DNA of 36,023 bases, from the IMG/VR virus record IMGVR_UViG_2778261035_000011. One strand, 5' to 3'. The notes under the pieces are model-generated. The model was not told the origin of the DNA and did no database searches. It saw only the letters and a program-made list of their open reading frames with translations. Positions 1,413-12,739 of this stretch are shown here, piece after piece; the first letter of the stretch is position 1; the number at the start of each line of letters is the position of its first letter. Both the position numbers and the translations under genes were made by a program. This stretch comes from a virus. Its lineage: Duplodnaviria > Heunggongvirae > Uroviricota > Caudoviricetes.

Positions 1413-1447
1413 GATCTGTATTACCGATCGATTTAATTGATTCGATC
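1413..1447. promoter_or_regulatory. cluster of three GATC (Dam) sites in the mom operon upstream control region
   Basis: GATC at 1413-1416, 1426-1429 and 1444-1447, lying 75-110 bp upstream of the com start on the transcribed side and overlapping the gin stop codon. Matches the known Dam/OxyR-controlled region of Mu Pmom. Confidence 0.6.
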
Positions 1448-2014
1448 GTCGTTTTCTATATGCGCTCGTTTCGCGGGGTGTTTTTTATACAGAGTTGACA
1501 GGGCCACATCGTAGATCAATGCAACCTGCTTGCGGGGGATTCCTTGTGCTAATAAACGCCCGGCCTGCTCCCATTCCGCTTTGGTTAGTTTAGGTGGTCG
1601 CCCACCAATACGGCCTTTATTTCTGGCGGCAGCAAGTCCAGCCATCGTTCGCTCGATGATTAGTTCTCGTTCCATTTCAGCCAGGGCACCCATAACGTGG
1701 AAGAAAAAACGCCCCATTGGAGAAGATGTGTCTATGCTGTCGGTCAGACTGCGAAAATTAATCCCTCGCTCCCGTAGTTCCCCGACGAGAGAAATCAGAT
1801 GTTTCATGCTTCGCCCGAGGCGATCCAGTTTCCAGACAACCAGCGTGTCACCTTTTTGAAGGCGTTTTAAAGCGCGTTTTAATCCCGGTCGGTCTGTCTT
1901 TGTCCCGCTTAATTTATCTTCAAATATTTGTTCACATCCTGCACAAACAAGAGCGTTTCGTTGCAGGTCTGTATTCTGGTCATTTGTTGATACCCTTACA
2001 TAGCCAATCAGCAC
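1433..2014 (-). CDS. gin: Gin serine DNA invertase (resolvase/invertase family)
   Basis: 193 aa, N-terminus MLIGYVRVSTNDQNTDLQ with catalytic Ser motif typical of Hin/Gin/Cin invertases; C-terminal HTH; sits immediately outside gixR. Confidence 0.95.
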   Translation of the reverse strand: MLIGYVRVSTNDQNTDLQRNALVCAGCEQIFEDKLSGTKTDRPGLKRALKRLQKGDTLVVWKLDRLGRSMKHLISLVGELRERGINFRSLTDSIDTSSPMGRFFFHVMGALAEMERELIIERTMAGLAAARNKGRIGGRPPKLTKAEWEQAGRLLAQGIPRKQVALIYDVALSTLYKKHPAKRAHIENDDRIN

Positions 2015-2068
2015 TCTGGATCTCCCGTTTAAAAGCGCAAATCATGCCATGCAGGCCGGAAACAACCA

Positions 2069-2094
2069 TTATCTAAAACCTCGGTTTACAAGAA
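2069..2094. repeat. gixR recombination site (inverted-repeat boundary of G segment)
   Basis: TTATCTAAAACCTCGGTTTACAAGAA on plus strand; reverse complement of 4891-4916 matches at 23 of 26 positions (TTATCCAAAACGTCGGTTTACAGGAA). Confidence 0.7.
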
Positions 2095-2790
2095 CTCGGC
2101 ACAAGCGGGGAGAAAATACCGTTACTCAGTACAGCGAATACCTGGACTAATCGACAAACATTCAGCGGTGGCCTTTCTGGGGAACTGTCCGGCAATGCCG
2201 CTACTGCAACAAAGCTGAAAACAGCACGAAAAATTGCTGGAGTTGGTTTTGATGGTTCTAGCGATATTTCAATTAGTGCCAAAAATGTCAATGCATTTGC
2301 ACTCCGACAAACAGGTAATACTGTTAATGGTGATACATCCGTTGGATGGAATTGGGATAGTGGTGCATATAACGCCCTGATTGGCGGTGCATCTGCATTA
2401 ATTCTTCACTTTAATATAAATGCTGGTAGCTGCCCTGCCGTACAATTCCGTGTGAATTATAAAAATGGTGGCATTTCCTACAGGTCAGCTCGTGATGGTT
2501 ATGGGTTTGAATTAGGTTGGTCAGATTTCTATACCACGACACGAAAACCTTCAGCGGGAGATGTTGGTGCATATACGAAGGCAGAATGTAACTCAAGGTT
2601 TATTACAGGTATTCGCCTTGGCGGTCTGTCATCTGTTCAGACATGGAATGGTCCCGGCTGGTCTGACAGGTCAGGTTATGTCGTTACAGGTTCAGTTAAC
2701 GGAAACCGTGATGAATTAATTGATACAACTCAGGCAAGGCCAATTCAGTATTGCATTAATGGGACGTGGTATAACGCGGGGAGTATTTAA
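2082..2790 (+). CDS. S': alternative tail fiber variable part S'v (start-less, silent in this orientation; would fuse to constant Sc after G inversion)
   Basis: Open frame from the stop at 2074-2076 to 2790 with no credible start; begins NLGLQELG at gixR, matching NVGLQE at gixL inside S; ends INGTWYNAGSI, similar to the S C-terminus INGTWYNVAQV. Confidence 0.65.
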
Positions 2791-2792
2791 CG

Positions 2793-3326
2793 ATGATGCA
2801 CTTAAAAAACATTACTGCTGGCAACCCTAAAACAAAAGAGCAATACCAGCTAACAAAGCAATTTAACATCAAATGGCTTTATTCAGATGATGGAAAAAAC
2901 TGGTATGAGGAACAAAAGAATTTCCAGCCAGACACTTTGAAAATGGTCTATGACCATAACGGCGTTATTATTTGTATTGAAAATGATGTTTCAGCAATTA
3001 ATCCGGAAGGCGCAAGCGTCGTTGAATTACCTGATATTACAGCAAATCGCCGGGCTGATATTTCGGGGAAATGGATGTTCAAAGATGGCGTAGTGATAAA
3101 GCGAACTTATACCGAGGAAGAGCAGAGACAACAAGCGGAAAATGAAAAGCAAAGCCTGTTGCAACTTGTCAGGGATAAAACCCAGCTATGGGACTCACAG
3201 CTACGGCTGGGCATCATTTCCGACGAGAATAAGCAGAAATTAACCGAGTGGATGCTCTTTGCACAGAAAGTCGAATCTACAGACACCTCCAGCCTGCCAG
3301 TAACGTTTCCCGAACAACCAGAATGA
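2793..3326 (+). CDS. U': alternative tail fiber assembly protein U'
   Basis: 177 aa; N-terminus [22 protein letters not shown] closely parallels U ([22 protein letters not shown]); convergent with U inside the G segment. Confidence 0.8.
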   Translation: MMHLKNITAGNPKTKEQYQLTKQFNIKWLYSDDGKNWYEEQKNFQPDTLKMVYDHNGVIICIENDVSAINPEGASVVELPDITANRRADISGKWMFKDGVVIKRTYTEEEQRQQAENEKQSLLQLVRDKTQLWDSQLRLGIISDENKQKLTEWMLFAQKVESTDTSSLPVTFPEQPE

Positions 3327-3330
3327 GAGA

Positions 3331-3348
3331 AGGCCCGATATCGGGCCT
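3331..3348. terminator. bidirectional hairpin between convergent U' and U
   Basis: Perfect palindrome AGGCCCGATATCGGGCCT followed by TTAATTTTT on the plus strand; lies between the U' stop (3326) and the U stop (3355). Confidence 0.5.
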
Positions 3349-3354
3349 TAATTT

Positions 3355-3882
3355 TTACTCTGGTTTTTGTGGCCATTCTGGCTTTGCCGTATCCACGCGG
3401 CTGACCAGAACGCTGTAGCGTTCCCAGGCTTCCAGTCGTGTACGTTCCTCATCTGTTGCCATATTCAGCCTGACAGCACGTTCCAGAAGCTGGATTACTG
3501 ATTCAGCTTCTGAAAGTAACGCGGCCTTTTGTGATTCGGTCTGTTGTTGCTGTTCGTCTGCTGTATAAATCCGCTTAACCACAGTTCCGTCCTTAAACAC
3601 CCACTTCCCTGAATCATCGGCACGACGATTGGCTGTTATATCGGGAATCTCAACGACGCTAAAGCCTTCGGGATTAAGTGTTGAGGCATCTTTGGTTATG
3701 GCAACAATAATATTATTTTCGTCGTATACAATCTTTATGGTGTCGTCCTGAAAGTTATTTACTTCCTCATACCAGTTTTTACCGTCTTCGGACCATAACC
3801 AGATAACATCAAAATTTTTTGTTAGCTGATATTGTTCTTTTGTTTTTGGATTTCCGGACTTAATATTTTTTAAATGCTGCAT
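3355..3882 (-). CDS. U: tail fiber assembly protein U
   Basis: 175 aa; paralogue of U'; directly downstream of S. Confidence 0.85.
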
Positions 3883-3885
3883 AAT

Positions 3886-5412
3886 TTACACCTGTGCGAC
3901 GTTATACCATGTGCCATTGATGTATTTTTGTATTGGTCTGAAGATGGCTTCATCATCGCCATCTACTTCACCAATGATTCTTAATCCGGTAATTGCGTGT
4001 CCGGCTTTTTCATAACGACCACCACGCGCCATCAATTGAACAACACGTGTGCCAAGTCGGACATCTCTCACATAGCGTGAGTCAAAATTGCCATAATTGC
4101 CGGGAATAATTTGCGCACCACAAAGCCAGTTACCGTTATTATCCATGTACGCCTGACCATCGGTGCCATTGGACGTCCTCGAATTATTAATCATGTAAAA
4201 ACCAAACTGGTAGTTACCAAGTCCACCGACAAAAAATTTGCGTTCTGCATGGTCTTGTCTTAACAAAGCCTGCGCAGAACTTGTTGATACTGCGTTTCTA
4301 CCAAAAATGACATTCTGGTTTCGCATATCAATCCATGAGGTTGAACCACTATTAATAGCAAACCTGTTTGCATACACCCAGGCGTTAGTTGTTATATCTC
4401 CTGTAACATCCAGACCATGCCCCATAATTATGCGACCAGTTCTGAGATTAAGCGTAAAGGGGCGTAGTGGCCCTATATCACCATTTTCCCCCTCATTCTC
4501 TCGTGTAGGGATGATATGCAGGCATTCTTCAGAACGACGAAAAATGGCACCAAAAGATGAATTAAATATCCTCAGTGCATTGACTGTAGATATTTTTACT
4601 TCACTGCTGAAAAGGGCTTTAACAAGAACATACAGAGCATCCCATTTAAGATTCATCAGGTCTTTTGTTGTGGTGCTCTGGCGACTTCTCCATTTGAAAT
4701 ATTCATTGCCGTTGTCACCTGTTTCAAACCACATATATGAATCAGTATCGCTGTCGGCATCATTTTTAAATCCAATTTTTGCCCAGTCAGTATTTCGAAT
4801 CCAGGCAAGGATTGAGTCGTTTTCAAAAGTAAGCCCGCCGGACAAAGTATCGCCATTTTTTTGCACGGCGTTCCCGGCTCGGTTTACCGTTTCCTGTAAA
4901 CCGACGTTTTGGATAAACAGCGGCTTATTGGGAATATCTGCTCCGTTCCGGTCTTTTGCCAGACGGGCATTGGCATTATCCATCGCAATTTTCACCGCTT
5001 TTGCGGTGGCTGCCAGCGTTTCACTGGGGCTGTCAGTGGCACTGGTTAGCTGAACGAGTCCTTTCTTGTTCAGGCTGGCATCATAAATATCCAGATTTTC
5101 ACGTGCTGTACGCTGTGCTGATGCCCCGGCAGTTTTAATTTCGCTGAGGTTATTTTTTATCAGCAGCGCATTCTTGTTCATGATGGCTTTAATGGACAGT
5201 GCAAGCTGGTTTAATTTTGTTTTATCCGGTTGAATACCGGCTTCTTCCAGCGTGTTTAATAACTCCGCCTGCACAATATTAAACCAGTCCATGCCGGGCC
5301 ATGTGATAACATTATTCCCGTCACCTTCTGAAAACCAGCGAACGATAGCACTACGCTGGGCGGATACGGGCGGCATGACGGTTACGCCGCTGTCGTTATC
5401 AATATAAAACAT
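3886..5412 (-). CDS. S: tail fiber protein S (constant N-terminal part outside G, variable C-terminal part inside G)
   Basis: 508 aa; gixL lies within the coding sequence at the ...PLFIQNVGLQETV segment; position after R in Mu synteny. Confidence 0.85.
   Translation of the reverse strand: MFYIDNDSGVTVMPPVSAQRSAIVRWFSEGDGNNVITWPGMDWFNIVQAELLNTLEEAGIQPDKTKLNQLALSIKAIMNKNALLIKNNLSEIKTAGASAQRTARENLDIYDASLNKKGLVQLTSATDSPSETLAATAKAVKIAMDNANARLAKDRNGADIPNKPLFIQNVGLQETVNRAGNAVQKNGDTLSGGLTFENDSILAWIRNTDWAKIGFKNDADSDTDSYMWFETGDNGNEYFKWRSRQSTTTKDLMNLKWDALYVLVKALFSSEVKISTVNALRIFNSSFGAIFRRSEECLHIIPTRENEGENGDIGPLRPFTLNLRTGRIIMGHGLDVTGDITTNAWVYANRFAINSGSTSWIDMRNQNVIFGRNAVSTSSAQALLRQDHAERKFFVGGLGNYQFGFYMINNSRTSNGTDGQAYMDNNGNWLCGAQIIPGNYGNFDSRYVRDVRLGTRVVQLMARGGRYEKAGHAITGLRIIGEVDGDDEAIFRPIQKYINGTWYNVAQV
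4891..4916. repeat. gixL recombination site inside S
   Basis: Plus strand TTCCTGTAAACCGACGTTTTGGATAA, inverted partner of 2069-2094. Confidence 0.7.
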
Positions 5413-5954: not shown

Positions 5955-7027
5955 TCAATTGTCCCCGGTGTTAACAGTTCCGTATTCTCCGAACGCTGGA
6001 TCTCTGTCGGGAAACGCACTTCAAAATCATCCAGACCGGTAACACCTGCCACCGCACGGATAATACGGGAGGGGGCAAGTGCGCCGCCCGGCGTCACCTC
6101 ATTAAAAAACATGGTATTAATGGCGTGGGTAATAGCCTGTTTTAGTTCGGCTGTCTTCGGTGATATATAAATCCGTGGATTTACCGGCTTTGCCTTTGGC
6201 GCAAATACAGTGACATTTACACCGTCAGGCTGTCCGACAATCAGACCGGTGATCGGGTCAGTATGACCGGCGATATAATCTGCCACGCGTTCCACGTCTG
6301 CCGGTTGTGGAAAAATATTGCTCCGGTTATCCATAACAAACGTCACCCCGACTGTGCCACCGCCTTTCCATGTCGGAAAACACCAGGCACGGGTAACGCC
6401 GCTGACTTCACGTGCCCAGCGGACGTAATCAAACTGATTACCGCCGAACGGAGGATACTGGACACGATATTCCAGCCGTGACAGCAGCTCCGCTGCACTC
6501 TCAATATCAGCCCCACCGGAAAACCCTTTTACAGTGATGGCATCGGAAACAACACAGGCAACCGGGGTGATCAACGTTAAAAGGGTATTCTCACCGGTAT
6601 TTCCTGCTTCACCGGCAGCCAGTGCGGTAACGGTAATTTCCGTCGTTCCTGCACGGTCAATCACAATGGCATCAGCCAGGCTGTAAACCACACCATCAGC
6701 ACGCTGCCAGCGTGTACCGGCAGGAATGGTGGTCGCTGCCGATGTGGTGACAGTCAGCGGACCGCTGGCGGCTGTCGCCTGTTTGCGGCGCACGCCCCAG
6801 AACCGACAGTGCTCCAGCAACTCATCTTCATCTGCTGTCGACGGGATAATCTGCCGTCCAACCCATGAAATATGCTCGTGACAACCGGCAGCAAGGCCTG
6901 CCTGAGCATAAGCAATGGCACTCAGCGTTTTTTCACGGGCCTGAGGCCAGCTACCCGGCAGGCGCTGTTCAATATTCTGTTCTGTACGGGCAATCAGCGA
7001 TGATAATGTCGGTGGTGAATAAGCCAT
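5945..7027 (-). CDS. W: baseplate J-like protein W (Mu gp47-like)
   Basis: 360 aa; position between V and R in Mu order. Confidence 0.75.
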   Translation of the reverse strand: MAYSPPTLSSLIARTEQNIEQRLPGSWPQAREKTLSAIAYAQAGLAAGCHEHISWVGRQIIPSTADEDELLEHCRFWGVRRKQATAASGPLTVTTSAATTIPAGTRWQRADGVVYSLADAIVIDRAGTTEITVTALAAGEAGNTGENTLLTLITPVACVVSDAITVKGFSGGADIESAAELLSRLEYRVQYPPFGGNQFDYVRWAREVSGVTRAWCFPTWKGGGTVGVTFVMDNRSNIFPQPADVERVADYIAGHTDPITGLIVGQPDGVNVTVFAPKAKPVNPRIYISPKTAELKQAITHAINTMFFNEVTPGGALAPSRIIRAVAGVTGLDDFEVRFPTEIQRSENTELLTPGTIEWL

Positions 7028-8055: not shown

Positions 8056-9182
8056 GGCGGCGTTTTCTCCGGGTGTCTGCGATAATAATCTTCAACCAGC
8101 GCATCAATACCGCCGTTACTGTCGCCGCCTTTCCTGTTTTTACGGTCGCTTTCAACCGGCACCAGAAAGCCTTCGCGTGGTGCAAGGCTGACGCGGGTTT
8201 TCAGCCCGTCCTGGTCATTCAGTATCAGGGTGACTTTGCTGACCAGTAATTCCGTGGTTTTGATGGCATATTTCGAGGCATCAATAGTGACCAGCAGGTT
8301 CGGCATCCAGAGTTGCCCGTCCTTGCGAGTCCATCCGTCAATTTCAGCCTCAAAGGTGATGGATTTTGCCAGTCTGCGGCGTTGCTCACGCAGGGCGCGG
8401 GCCTGTGCATCCTTCGCCGTAATTTTGCTGTCAGCAATGATGATCATCGGTCTGTAACGGGTTACATCACTGTCAGTGGCGGTCCCTTTCCGGGAGACGA
8501 TACTTTTCGCATCAATATCATCACCCTCAGCACCGTTTGCGCGGGCATACCCCTTGACGGTGTATTCGCTGAACCGGTCGCGGAAGTCTTCCTCAAAATC
8601 CAGTGTCAGCAGATTTTCTCCGAGAACCAGCTCATCAGTGGCTGTGCTGGCAGCCCGGCTGAATACCAGCTCTCCTGCGGCATTGCTGGTCATCAGTACA
8701 CCGCGTGCGCGGGAGGCACGCACCAGCGCCTCATAAACGGTTTCTGAATGGTCCAGCGTGAAGCCGGGAAAAGCTGCCGAACTTTCCTTATCGGAAAGCT
8801 CCCAGCGAACGGTAACGCCATAAGGGGCGCACAGGTCACGCGCAATCTGCTCCAGTGTGCGGTTTTTCCACTGTCCGCCACTGTAAACGGCAGCACAGTC
8901 AATCAGGTCAGCCGTTTTGTCACGTCCGGCGACAGTGATTTTCATGCTGTCAGCGGTCATCTGGCGTCGCCGCGAATCGATATAACCGGTGCAGACAATC
9001 TGCCCGTCGATTTCCAGCGTGAACGCCTTCCCCGGTGCCAGCCCGGATAAATCTGTACCCGGTGGCACATTCACCCCCAGCTCAAAATATCCGGCTACGG
9101 ATTCAATGGAGCGGGTGACAGAGACTGACGTCCAGCCGGTAAAAAGCCTGCCATCCGTTCGCAGCGTGACGGTATTACTCAT
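8043..9182 (-). CDS. P: tail protein P (Mu gp44-like, baseplate hub)
   Basis: 379 aa; follows N with short overlap. Confidence 0.75.
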
Positions 9183-10662
9183 TAATCACCTCAATACTGA
9201 CACCACCGGGAACAAACAACGGGTTGCTGATACCGTTCCTGCGGGCCAGCCGTTGCCAGTTCCGGCTGTTTCCTGTGTAACGGTACAGAGCCACCATTGC
9301 AGGCATCGTCTCCGGCAGGCGGTGCGTTTCACTGCCCGCCAGTTGCAGCCCGCGTTTTTCCAGGTCGGCAACAACCAGCAGACGCAGTTGCGTAAGCTGA
9401 ACGCTGTCTGTCGAAAAGCCCTGCTCAGATGCCGTCAGAATGACGGTATCCAGCGCTGCCCCCAGCATGGCGGCTGTTTTTCCGATATCGGACACACTTT
9501 CAAATACCGGGGGCGTGGCTGTACCACTGTCTGAAAAGGATACCTGTGAAAAGCCGCCGTCCGGGGTTATGGCAGTTAACTGTAACTGTCCCTGTGTGAC
9601 GGTAGCGGATGTGCTGCTGGCCCCGCTGGCTGTGCCGGTTGTGGTGGACGGGGCATCCAGTACAGGTGCACGGGCGGCATTATCCATCCGGCGACTGAAA
9701 TCCAGTGCCGCAGTCAGTGCCTGGCTTGCTGCCTCCGCCCGGTATGTCTGTGCTGCTGCCAGCATGACGTAGTTCAGTGTGGCAATATTTTTTTCTGCAA
9801 CCGGACTGTTGTACGAGGTTGTGATTGTCCCCTGTCTGCCTGCGGTGGCGGCATGGCGACGTTCGAATCGCTGCGCCAGACGGTTCCATGTGGAAAATGC
9901 TGTCCGGGTATCGCATAACGATGAAACGCCGGACAGCGCCCCCATCAGCGAGGAGGCCAGCATGGCAGGCTGGTTAATCAGGCTGGTCACAGAGCCTTTC
10001 ATCGCAGAAAGCGATCCCATCAGACCGCTGACAGTCTGCGTAACCCCCAGATTGTCCACCGCATCACTGATATCATCGATGACACCGGTTACAGCTTCCA
10101 TCACGGCGGTTGCCGCCGCAGTGCCATCTTTTACGGTCTGCCAGACAGAGGACAGCGTATCTCCCAGAGAACCGGTTACAGCAACGGCCTGTGCCGGTAC
10201 GGCTGCACTGGTGTCTGTCTCTGCGTCCGGGGCAGTATCCTGCAACGACGGATAAACGGTAACGGTGAACGCGTAATAATTCAGTTCATCCGCTTTAGTG
10301 CGGCATTCCCATGAATCCACCATGACGTCCACAGTGCCGAAATCAGGATGTACCAGCTCACCGCTACCCGGAGCATCAAGAGCATCCATCAGCGCACCCG
10401 CTTCATCTCTGGCTGTTTCTGCGTTGCTGTTCAGAATGCAGGCGCTGAATGTACGGGAGCGAAGCTTTTTCCCCAGGTCATTGACGCCGCCGGTATCACG
10501 TAACGGGTACTCGAGTTTAACCAGGCGACGTCCGCCAGCCTGTTTTTGCTCCTCGATGACGAGAAACGGCACGTTACGAAACGTGCCTTTGCCGGTTGTT
10601 TTCTTACCACCGCTGATTTTATCCCGGACAGCATTAACGGCATTTAAAGCATCTTCAAACAT
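9175..10662 (-). CDS. N: DNA circularization protein N (Mu gp43-like)
   Basis: 495 aa; directly downstream of the tape measure gene, as in Mu. Confidence 0.8.
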
Positions 10663-10666
10663 GGTT

Positions 10667-12739
10667 TTACCAGCCTGTAATGTAGTTATCGCCCGCGTAA
10701 ATATTCAGCCCCATACCGTCCTCGGTGACGCGGGAACTGGTCAGACGTAACCCCTCGCCAAGTTCGACGCGCAGCGAGGCTTCCGCATTCACTTTTTGTT
10801 CCTGCGGTTCCTTATCCGGGGCCGTCCATTTCTGATACAGGTCGGTTACAAAACCGCCCAGATACTCCCCGGCGACACTGCCCAGCGTGGCACCGGCAAC
10901 CGTACCCAGCGGTCCGGCAAGGCTGCCAACGGCACCGCCGAGCCATGCACCGGCTGTACTGCCAATTGCGCCTGCTTTTTCATGGGTTGACGCCTGCTCA
11001 TCCATCAGGACGGGGGCAAGCTGGAGTGCCCCCATTACCGGGCCACCCAGACGTGACAACGCACGACCGGCACCTTTCCCCATCCAGCCCAGCGCCCCGG
11101 CACCTTTTGTCACAACCCGACCGATCGCACTGCCTGCAAGTTTGTTTCCGATACCGGAAAACCACCCGCCAACAGCACGCCCGGCATCAGCCAGCTTTCC
11201 GACCGTTCCCGTAACCAGTTGCCCGGCAGCACTGCCTGCAAGCCTGCTCAGAAGACCGGATTTACCGGGTAAAGGTAATGGTGCAGGCCGTGCTGTTACC
11301 GGTACGCCGGGTGGGGATAATGCCAGTACAGGGCGTGGTGCAGGTAATGCCAGCGGCTGTGGCCCGGACAGCAATAACGGCTGGCGGGGTAACAGCGGGG
11401 CCATTCTTCCGCCGCTCCGTCCGCGACGACCGCCGCCACTCCCGTAGCCACCAAATCCACGGGGCCAGTTGATGACAAACACACGCTGAATGCCGATACC
11501 CTGCAACAGCGTCTCAGACGTCATGGCATCCGGGACCGGCAGACCTGCCTGCCCACGTTTGCGGTTTCGCATCCAGCGCCACATACGACGCCCGGTTTTA
11601 AACGGATAACTGGCAACCTGCCATGAGGGTTTTGCCACGGCCCAGCCTGCTCTCAGGGCTTTATTGGCAAGCCAGACAGACACCAGAACAGCAGCCAGTT
11701 TTTTCAGGCTGACAATATTCTGGTCAACCCATGCCAGCGCATCTTTACCCGGTTTCAGCCAGCGCCATAATTCCTGCGCCGCGATTTTTACCGTTCTGAA
11801 CGTGGTCAGAAATTTCTGACCAATGTTTTCTGCCAGTGCGTCAAGTTCCCCGGATTTATCCGCCATGTCGTGCCAGTTAAGCACCCGGCGCATCTCGTTC
11901 TTGATTTCTTCAAAGGGGCCGCTGTTTGCCACCTTTATGCGAAATTCAAGCAGGTTAGCTTCCATCTGGGCGAACATCCCGTCCCAGGAGTTCATCGCAC
12001 TGGCCTGTGCACCTTTTGACTGTTCTGACAGCGTTCTGAATACCGTCAGAATGGATTTCAGACCCAGCTTGCCTTTTTCACCTTGTTTGCGGATATCCTT
12101 AACGTCTTTACCCAGTGCATCCGCCAGCGTCTGGTAAACGTTAATACCGTAACCGGTCAGCAGGTTGGCATCCGCCGCCGTGATTTGCTGGCGGGCAAAC
12201 ATCTGTTTCAGTTGCAGTGAGGCACCCTGTGCAGTGGGTAAATCCCAGCCGTGCATGGCCCCCTGATCCTGCAACATGGTGATGAACTGTTTCGTCTGTT
12301 CATCCGTCATGCCGAAGCCTTTCGACGAACGGATCTCATCCAGAACACCACTCAGCCCCCACGTGGTGTCCTTCGCGTTCTGCTTTGCCCAGGCCATCAT
12401 GGCCTGCGCTCTGACCTTATCGCCGTGATACAGCGAGTTCATGGCGATAATTTGCTGCTCACGCTGGGCGGCTGCACCAATAAACAGTTTATTGGCGGTG
12501 TAACCCACACCAGCGATACCCAGCGCCCCGGCTGACAGCATTCGGAATGTACGGGTTGACAGTGAACCCATTCTGTCAATGGCACCAGAAACGCGCACAA
12601 CCTCCATACGCAGGGCACGAAGGGAACTTTGTCCGCTACGGGACAGGGCGTTTATCTGGTTCGAATACTGGCGGGAACGCCGGGAAAGATTGCCATTAAG
12701 ATCAATAATGACAGACGCCTTTAAGCGTTTCCCGGTCAT
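10667..12739 (-). CDS. tail tape measure protein (Mu gp42-like)
   Basis: About 690 aa; start taken at ATG 12739 ([14 protein letters not shown] upstream) rather than the track's 12832; long Gly/Pro-rich C-terminal half; lies between the gp41-like gene and N. Confidence 0.8.

Follow-up and report, generated by a model that had tools for sequence, protein, structure and literature searches.

Whether a tail-fibre segment bounded by two unequal recombination sites can still be inverted is the question raised by the DNA analysed here, a stretch of 36,023 nucleotides from a virus of the Caudoviricetes (IMG/VR record IMGVR_UViG_2778261035_000011) that is referred to below as the window. The locus is almost certainly a functional G-inversion switch of host range, carried by a transposable Mu-like prophage of E. 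coli of the D108/PhiR68_1 type. Its mechanism is textbook, and the phage is a new mosaic member of the Mu-type switches.

Nucleotide comparison identifies the window as a D108/PhiR68_1-like Muvirus prophage of E. coli. PhiR68_1, D108 and Mu match 95-97% of positions 11024-36023 at ~98% identity, and the genome is of the Mu type, with transposase genes, random insertion and the Mu-type end ...CGCCGCTTCA. Within the Mu-type right end, com, mom and gin were all found from the open reading frame (ORF) list and the Mu reference, and the right-end 'D108-specific' gene is present as well. Identity of the window with phage Mu itself was considered and rejected: the start of one variable fibre part (S'v) and the middle of the other (Sv) have no match in Mu.

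Layout of the invertible segment

The segment and its surroundings comprise the following features, each given with its coordinates, strand and basis.

1433..2014, - strand: gin, serine DNA invertase, 193 aa, GTG start (ORF, Pfam, identity to Mu Gin, 3UJ3)
1930..1992, - strand: predicted recombinational enhancer (sis), gin nt 23-85 (homology and Fis-consensus matches)
2015..2068, - strand: gin-gixR spacer, 54 bp, presumed gin promoter region (sequence reading)
2069..2094, + strand: gixR, gin-proximal recombination site, TTATCTAAAACC-TC-GGTTTACAAGAA (Mu gix comparison)
2083..2790, + strand: S'v, silent alternative variable fibre part (translation; frame open from 2077)
2793..3326, + strand: U', silent tail-fibre assembly protein, 177 aa (Pfam Caudo_TAP, 4.6e-36)
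3330..3349, no strand assigned: G+C-rich hairpin separating the convergent genes U' and U (terminator-like on the + strand)
3355..3882, - strand: U, expressed tail-fibre assembly protein, 175 aa (Pfam Caudo_TAP, 9.8e-35)
3886..5412, - strand: S, tail fibre, 508 aa (ORF, in frame across the 4891-4916 site)
3886..4902, - strand: Sv, resident expressed variable part of S (within the 508-aa ORF; Pfam Gp34_trimer)
4891..4916, - strand: gixL, site inside S, TTATCCAAAACG-TC-GGTTTACAGGAA as read on the - strand (Mu gix comparison)
4905..5412, - strand: Sc, constant N-terminal part of S, outside the invertible segment (ORF; Pfam Phage_fiber_2)

This is the layout of a Mu-type G segment, with a constant fibre part outside and two variable parts that face each other, each with its own chaperone; the 2.8-kb segment itself has S'v and U' on the plus strand, with U and Sv opposite on the minus strand. 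A preliminary description had proposed an intact G-inversion switch in the S-U-expressing orientation, in which the constant part of S runs in frame through gixL and the alternative S'v/U' pair is silent on the plus strand, and these points stand. The 508-aa ORF crosses 4891-4916, and the S'v frame (2077-2790) and U' (2793-3326) both lie on the plus strand. Moreover, the annotation of the Mu reference genome gives its G segment as expressing S and U, and since the window is collinear with that genome, it too is in the G(+) orientation, with S and U expressed.

The two inverted arms, TTATCTAAAACCTCGGTTTACAAGAA at 2069-2094 and TTATCCAAAACGTCGGTTTACAGGAA as the reverse complement of 4891-4916, are equal at 23/26 positions, in agreement with the three differences reported earlier. 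The mismatches fall at positions 6, 12 and 23, and both arms have TC as the central dinucleotide (positions 13-14). Such an architecture, with inverted sites of 26 bp in which two 12-bp half-sites flank a 2-bp core, fits the Gin/Cin/Pin/Hin (Din) family of DNA-inversion systems. A search for the Mu gix site at <=3 mismatches returned exactly two matches in the 36-kb window, both being these arms, and no match in 100 shuffled windows. Relative to Mu, gixR carries two substitutions, C6T, which is common to D108 and SfMu, and G23A, which accompanies the P88-type S'v module. The single substitution of gixL, C12G, adjoins the core and is the same in D108, PhiR68_1 and SfMu; two of the three site mismatches of the window are thus found in D108 and SfMu. 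That the sites differ, with one mismatch directly at the core, is a counterpoint to a working switch.

In the fibre gene, Sc is ~97-100% identical in nucleotide sequence to that of Mu, D108 and PhiR68_1, and Sv is a mosaic, of the P88/P7 type at 3800-4100, of the P7 type at 4100-4600 and common to Mu at 4600-4916. At the protein level, S is 77% identical to Mu S, U 94.9% to Mu U and U' 96.6% to Mu U', and the two chaperones share 55% identity with each other over their full length. S'v has 99.1% identity to its silent counterpart in Xuanwuvirus P88_4B11, and over the C-terminal 165 aa it matches Mu S'v at 88.5%. Towards gin, its frame is bounded by a TAA stop codon at 2074-2076 that belongs to the outer half-site; when the segment is inverted in silico, S'v becomes fused in frame to Sc, giving an S' of 405 aa. 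At the location equivalent to the U'/U hairpin, the D108 record has rho-independent terminators annotated on both strands. The two tips had been described as alike only in the extreme C-terminal NGTWYN, which understates their kinship, as they share 38% identity in the final 65-71 residues (E = 2e-8), a resemblance limited enough to be compatible with different receptors.

The invertase gene is intact. Its product contains the Pfam domains Resolvase (2e-50) and HTH_7 (2e-17), is 99.5% identical to Mu Gin, aligns to the solved structure 3UJ3 over 193/193 residues and has the catalytic Ser9. The earlier estimate that gin starts about 55 bp outside gixR is close to the measured gap of 54 bp, and a ribosome-binding site, GGGAGA, is located 7 nt 5' of the GTG. 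It had further been argued that the gin promoter must overlap gixR, but a scan for a sigma-70-like consensus 5' of gin gave no match there; the overlap is therefore still conjectural, and the promoter presumably lies in the 54-bp spacer.

An enhancer had also been expected in the gin 5' coding region, and here homology lends support. Over its first 105 nt, gin does not differ from Mu, and this stretch includes Fis-consensus matches at nt 23-37 and 71-85, with centres 48 bp apart, in a degenerate motif that gives ~16 matches/kb and is frequent by chance. In the P7 record, the enhancer of cin is annotated at nt 19-86 of that gene, the homologous stretch, and for Mu a paper title places the enhancer within the invertase gene (Kahmann et al. 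1985, cited in PMC3798978). Together with the identity to Mu, these records point to a putative Fis-dependent enhancer within the 5' coding region of gin.

The proposed course of inversion takes its cutting chemistry, its dependence on Fis and the enhancer, and the gin promoter from the literature on Mu, Hin and Cin. Gin, encoded directly outside the segment, would bind the two inverted 26-bp gix sites as dimers, and gix-bound Gin would synapse with the Fis-bound enhancer in the gin 5' coding region. Cleavage of both sites at TC, followed by rotation of half of the complex through 180 degrees, would then leave the 2.8-kb segment inverted. Because Sc holds the promoter and the start codon, only the variable part downstream of it would be translated, namely Sv with its chaperone U in the window state and S'v with U', as a 405-aa fibre, in the inverted state. 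By analogy with the same literature, the two fibres would be expected to give different host ranges.

Both orientations in public assemblies

The preliminary description had named assemblies in both orientations as the way to check the switch, and they exist. The exact 508-aa S occurs in a public collection in 18 contigs by cluster look-up and 23 by contig look-up, and the exact predicted 405-aa S' occurs in public E. coli assemblies in 4 and 6 contigs, respectively. When the window is inverted in silico across the segment, it is collinear with locus L020, from which it differs at 3 of 11,412 nt (99.974% identity), and the native window matches loci L010-L019 at 99.4-100% identity. The segment is flipped in three loci, L020-L022, in a phage that is 99.97% identical, and thus both states of the same phage are found, each in different isolates. 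Twelve loci of this phage occupy 12 different host insertion sites and have the right end in common, which indicates independent lysogens of an active phage. Among these 12 loci there is no G(+)/G(-) pair at the same host site, a pair that would point to switching within one lineage.

The polymorphisms between the sites reveal where exchange took place. In L020-L022, the outer half-sites are retained, with G at position 12 remaining with Sc and T at position 6 and C at position 12 remaining with gin, and the inner half-sites (A or G at position 23) have been exchanged along with the segment. The crossover therefore lies between gix positions 12 and 23, an interval that is consistent with the TC core.

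Complete genomes were searched with synthetic junctions. The Sc-S'v junction was found at no place in complete E. coli genomes at >=80% coverage, and its two best partial matches, in two complete genomes, are related Mu-like prophages in the flipped state, with a short S'v and a G segment that is ~90% identical. The gin-Sv junction is full-length in 216 genomes, the best match (H51, locus L009) being in a P2-like/P88-like prophage. This count was set aside as evidence for the window phage, because only that best match was inspected and it is not Mu-like.

It might be asked whether some agent other than the resident Gin mainly inverts the segment, either a co-resident invertase (Pin of e14, Cin of P1 or that of a P88-like phage) or homologous recombination of the host. 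Related invertase/site modules are very common, with 1,703/5,426 complete E. coli genomes matching the region; P88-like prophages have nearly the same sites and modules, and Gin, Cin, Pin and Hin cross-complement one another. However, the phage has its own intact gin, whose product differs little from Mu Gin, an enzyme characterised in biochemical work, together with an enhancer region identical to Mu. As for host recombination, an imperfect 26-bp repeat is a poor RecA substrate, and the exchange is confined to 10 bp around the core. On balance, inversion mainly by another agent is improbable.

A frozen segment, in which three mismatches, one of them core-adjacent, stop Gin and lock the fibre in the S/U state, is less probable still. 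The arms are indeed unequal at 3/26 positions, and the authors of the SfMu study suggested that this core-adjacent C12G mismatch might slow or block inversion, and their lysates were without host-range change (PMC4406740); sequence comparison confirms that SfMu does have the C12G change. Against this view, the core dinucleotide is equal in both sites, gin is intact, and at least three loci hold the same phage (99.97%) with the segment flipped, and in these loci the junctions fall inside the sites and the inner half-sites have changed partners. Least credible of all is that the opposite orientations are short-read assembly artefacts at the inverted repeat: most loci do come from draft assemblies and the contig of L022 ends within the segment, but the repeat is just 26 bp, imperfect and below read length and the usual k-mers, so that reads pass straight through the junctions; the flipped loci stem from independent samples and insertion sites and have exactly the hybrid sites expected of core exchange, and related prophages are flipped in complete genomes.

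Site polymorphisms and exchange of fibre modules

With a functional Gin-driven switch as the preferred reading, the main value of the analysis is correct annotation: this one prophage has two possible fibres, a 508-aa one and a 405-aa one, the latter joining a Mu constant part to a tip known otherwise from the P2-like P88 phages. Since both states are present in public assemblies, two gix sites that differ at three positions, including one adjacent to the core, still recombine, which is relevant to the point left open for SfMu. A more far-reaching proposal is put forward as tentative and rather doubtful, namely that the half-site polymorphisms serve as a map of the crossover, that C12G does not block Gin in nature and that gixR may record an intermolecular exchange. 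Tolerance of C12G, if true, contradicts the suggestion made for SfMu.

The last part of this proposal arises from the sequence around gixR, which changes from D108-type to P88-type within 10 bp around the core. Because the change is so close to the core, it may record an intermolecular exchange of fibre modules mediated by an invertase, and Mu-like and P2-like prophages may have exchanged them in this way rather than by ordinary homologous recombination. The resulting patchwork of Mu, P1/P7 and P88 illustrates cleanly how unrelated temperate phages exchange fibre modules, a process that matters when host range is predicted from prophage sequences.

Comparison with known systems

The Mu G segment has the same order as the window, Sc, gixL, Sv-U / U'-S'v, gixR and gin-com-mom, and its reference is in the same orientation. 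Between the site ends it measures 3,084 bp, compared with 2,848 bp in the window. The Mu repeat is 34 bp and perfect, whereas that of the window is 26 bp with 3 mismatches, the shortening being due to sequence of a different type inside the gin-side site. In addition, the S'v of Mu has ~314 aa compared with 232 aa in the window, where the first 67 residues are of another type, and Sv is replaced in its middle portion.

The closest relatives by backbone are D108, PhiR68_1 and SfMu, which are ~98% identical to the window and share with it, as a group, the C6T and C12G site variants. The S of PhiR68_1 is 93.7% identical to that of the window. These three phages, however, have the long, Mu-type S'v, whereas the window has an S'v with a P88-type start and, in the inner half-site, the extra G23A.

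The P88-like phage of the P2 family, Xuanwuvirus P88_4B11, is 96.5% identical to the window over 1626-4104 and has its invertase, site, paired fibre tips and paired chaperones arranged in the same way. It differs in its constant fibre part (716 aa in total), its outer half-sites and its P2-type backbone. As judged by nucleotide identity, the P7 C segment is 91.8% identical to window positions 2292-4854, and the middle of Sv is 97-100% of the P7 type. Its enhancer lies within the 5' end of the invertase gene (cin), as is predicted for gin in the window. P1 and P7 differ from the window in cin, which has ~71% nucleotide identity, in a cix core of TT rather than TC, and in the length of the P7 C segment (~4 kb).

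The Salmonella Hin/hix system is of the same class, with a Fis- and enhancer-dependent serine invertase and 26-bp sites. In Salmonella, hin is inside the inverted segment and the switch relocates a promoter, not coding ends. The Hin enhancer lies ~100 bp from one site (PMC3798978), and the predicted proximal Fis site of the window would be ~97 bp from the gixR centre.

The prophage and its right-end genes

The DNA is a D108/PhiR68_1-type Muvirus prophage, in reverse complement to the usual Mu map: at the nucleotide level, 81-94% of the region aligns with PhiR68_1, D108 and Mu at ~93% identity, and window positions 11024-36023 match the same three phages at ~98%. Among the complete E. coli genomes of the collection, no identical copy was present, the best reaching 97% coverage at 95.3%. 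The exact S fibre protein was recovered from 18 contigs by cluster look-up and 23 by contig look-up, mainly draft E. coli assemblies, and one of these loci (L016, GCA_002476295.1) matches the window at 100% identity across 11.4 kb. In the public-assembly loci L010-L021 (n=12), the phage runs 92 nt past window position 1 (locus 11413-11520) to a common end, ...GCGCCGCTTCA, beyond which twelve different host sequences follow in 12/12 loci. The right attachment end therefore lies beyond the window, and there have been many independent insertions of the phage, which is the trace that a transposing, still active phage would leave.

Features of the region (ORF reading, or sequence reading where marked *seq)
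1-477, minus: 'D108-specific' ORF
492-1229, minus: mom
1150-1338, minus: com
1433-2014, minus: gin, serine recombinase, 193 aa
2069-2094: gin-side 26-bp site, gixR (seq)
inside gixR to 2790, plus: open frame of S'v, the alternative variable part of the fibre (seq)
2793-3326, plus: U' ORF, 177 aa
3330-3349: G+C-rich hairpin (seq)
3355-3882, minus: U ORF, 175 aa
3886-5412, minus: S ORF, 508 aa, holding the second 26-bp site, gixL, at 4891-4916

The ORF at the extreme right end encodes 148-158 aa with a signal-peptide-like N-terminus, has no Pfam match and is annotated elsewhere as 'D108-specific protein'; it is accessory-gene-like and is absent from Mu. The stretch between the gin stop and com (1409-1446) contains a near-palindrome, AATCGATCTGTA / TACCGATCGATT, together with three GATC sites; in Mu, this position would be that of the region ahead of mom controlled by Dam and OxyR.

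Both orientations of the G segment

The preliminary description, an intact inversion switch in the S-U-expressing orientation, is real and was rightly interpreted. The Mu reference record, with which the window is collinear, has the constant part contiguous with S and U and annotates S' and U' as G(-) products. When positions 2083-4902 are inverted in silico, the constant part joins the other variable part in frame, giving an S' of 405 aa, and this exact protein exists in the public collection in E. coli (4 contigs by cluster look-up, 6 by contig look-up). Both orientations, which had been proposed as something to seek in assemblies, were found in separate ones: L010-L019 are collinear with the native window, and three loci with DNA, L020-L022, carry the constant part followed by S' and U'. 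In L020 and L021, U and Sv, the resident variable part, follow on the opposite strand and then gin-com-mom; the inverted window is collinear with L020 and mismatches it at 3 positions in 11,412 nt. Among complete E. coli genomes, CP098214 and AP024518 both have related Mu-like prophages, flipped and with the same short S' type. Neither a single orientation together with a disrupted gin nor a non-recombining pair of repeats was encountered, and the switch is intact.

Three side observations concern these loci. RefSeq marks both fibre-gene copies of the AP024518 prophage, expressed and silent (L008:4408-5626, 2438-3312), as frameshifted. L021 lacks ~1.3 kb at ~2364 (window about 9050-10364), where the tape-measure / DNA-circularisation genes lie, and this flipped prophage is probably defective as a result. 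The L022 contig ends at locus 7967, within U and inside the invertible segment, where a mixed-orientation population, or similarity between U and U' breaking the assembly, could be responsible.

Half-site polymorphisms and crossover

The inverted sites differ, as described, at 3 of 26 positions (6, 12 and 23, with 23/26 matching) and have the central TC in common. Read outside inwards, the gin-side site is TTATCTAAAACC-TC-GGTTTACAAGAA and that inside S TTATCCAAAACG-TC-GGTTTACAGGAA; they are the only matches to Mu gix (<=3 mismatches) in the whole window, and 0/100 shuffles gave one at that threshold. In the flipped loci, hybrid sites (6497-6522 and 9319-9344 in L020 and L021; 6497-6522 in L022) keep the outer half-sites, TTATCCAAAACG adjoining the constant part and TTATCTAAAACC adjoining gin, while the inner half-sites and all sequence behind them are swapped. 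The crossover thus fell between positions 12 and 23, as cleavage at the TC core predicts, and the polymorphic half-sites serve as a natural crossover map, the first of two small points of value here.

D108 and SfMu carry both C6T (gin side) and C12G (inside S), and PhiR68_1 has C12G only; these changes are lineage traits rather than decay. G23A lies in the inner half-site, at the switch from D108-like to P88-type sequence, P88-type phages having GGTTTACGAGAA as inner half-site. It was suggested for SfMu that the change adjoining the core might reduce or abolish inversion (PMC4406740); the second point is that the flipped twins argue that this core-adjacent mismatch is tolerated and does not abolish it. 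C6T also creates an in-frame TAA (2074-2076) in the outer half-site of gixR, and the first in-frame start of the silent S'v frame is GTG at 2452, so silent S'v is untranslatable from the gin side. In Mu, by contrast, the frame is open here, and the GeneMark ORF Mup52 begins outside the segment.

Recombinase, putative enhancer and mosaic fibres

Gin has Resolvase and HTH_7 domains (Pfam), is 99.5% identical to Mu Gin, and structure 3UJ3 aligns with all 193 residues, catalytic Ser9 included. It starts 54 bp outside gixR, close to the ~55 bp first given. The gin promoter may overlap gixR; a consensus scan of 2015-2100 returned no sigma-70-like site. The Mu enhancer is located inside the invertase gene, according to Kahmann et al. 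1985 as cited in PMC3798978, and that of cin is annotated at cin nt 19-86 in the record of phage P7. Here, gin nt 1-105 are identical to Mu, and the case for a putative enhancer in the 5' coding region rests on this identity rather than on the Fis-consensus matches (nt 23-37 and 71-85, centres 48 bp apart), because that motif is degenerate, with ~16 matches per kb. The proximal match is ~97 bp from the gixR centre, similar to the roughly 100 bp of Hin (PMC3798978).

S is 77%, 80% and 94% identical to the S of Mu, D108 and PhiR68_1, respectively. U and U', both Caudo_TAP fibre-assembly proteins (Pfam), share 95% and 97% with their Mu counterparts and 55% with each other over full length. The variable parts had been thought to share only NGTWYN; in fact, their last 65-71 residues are 38% identical (E = 2e-8).

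Mosaic of the G segment (identity in 100-bp windows)
2095-2600: S'v start and middle; 98-100% type of P88_4B11, a P88-like Xuanwuvirus; Mu/D108 absent or 68-84%
2600-3800: S'v end, U', U; common to all, 85-100%
3800-4100: Sv end; P88/P7 type; Mu 65%
4100-4600: Sv middle; 92-100% P7 type (97-100% from 4200); no Mu/D108 match from about 4250, no P88 match throughout
4600-4916: Sv start; shared

From 2095 to 4600, the segment is pieced together from modules known otherwise from P88-like P2-family phages and P1/P7, with one boundary inside gixR. The D108-like prophage, whose G segment has been reshuffled, carries a classic tail-fibre switch of the known Gin/gix type, and both states of the switch are already in public data. 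Fibre patchworks among Mu, P1 and the P2 family are well known; here S'v has 232 aa compared with about 314 in Mu, and resembles Mu S'v in its last 165 aa only (88.5%).
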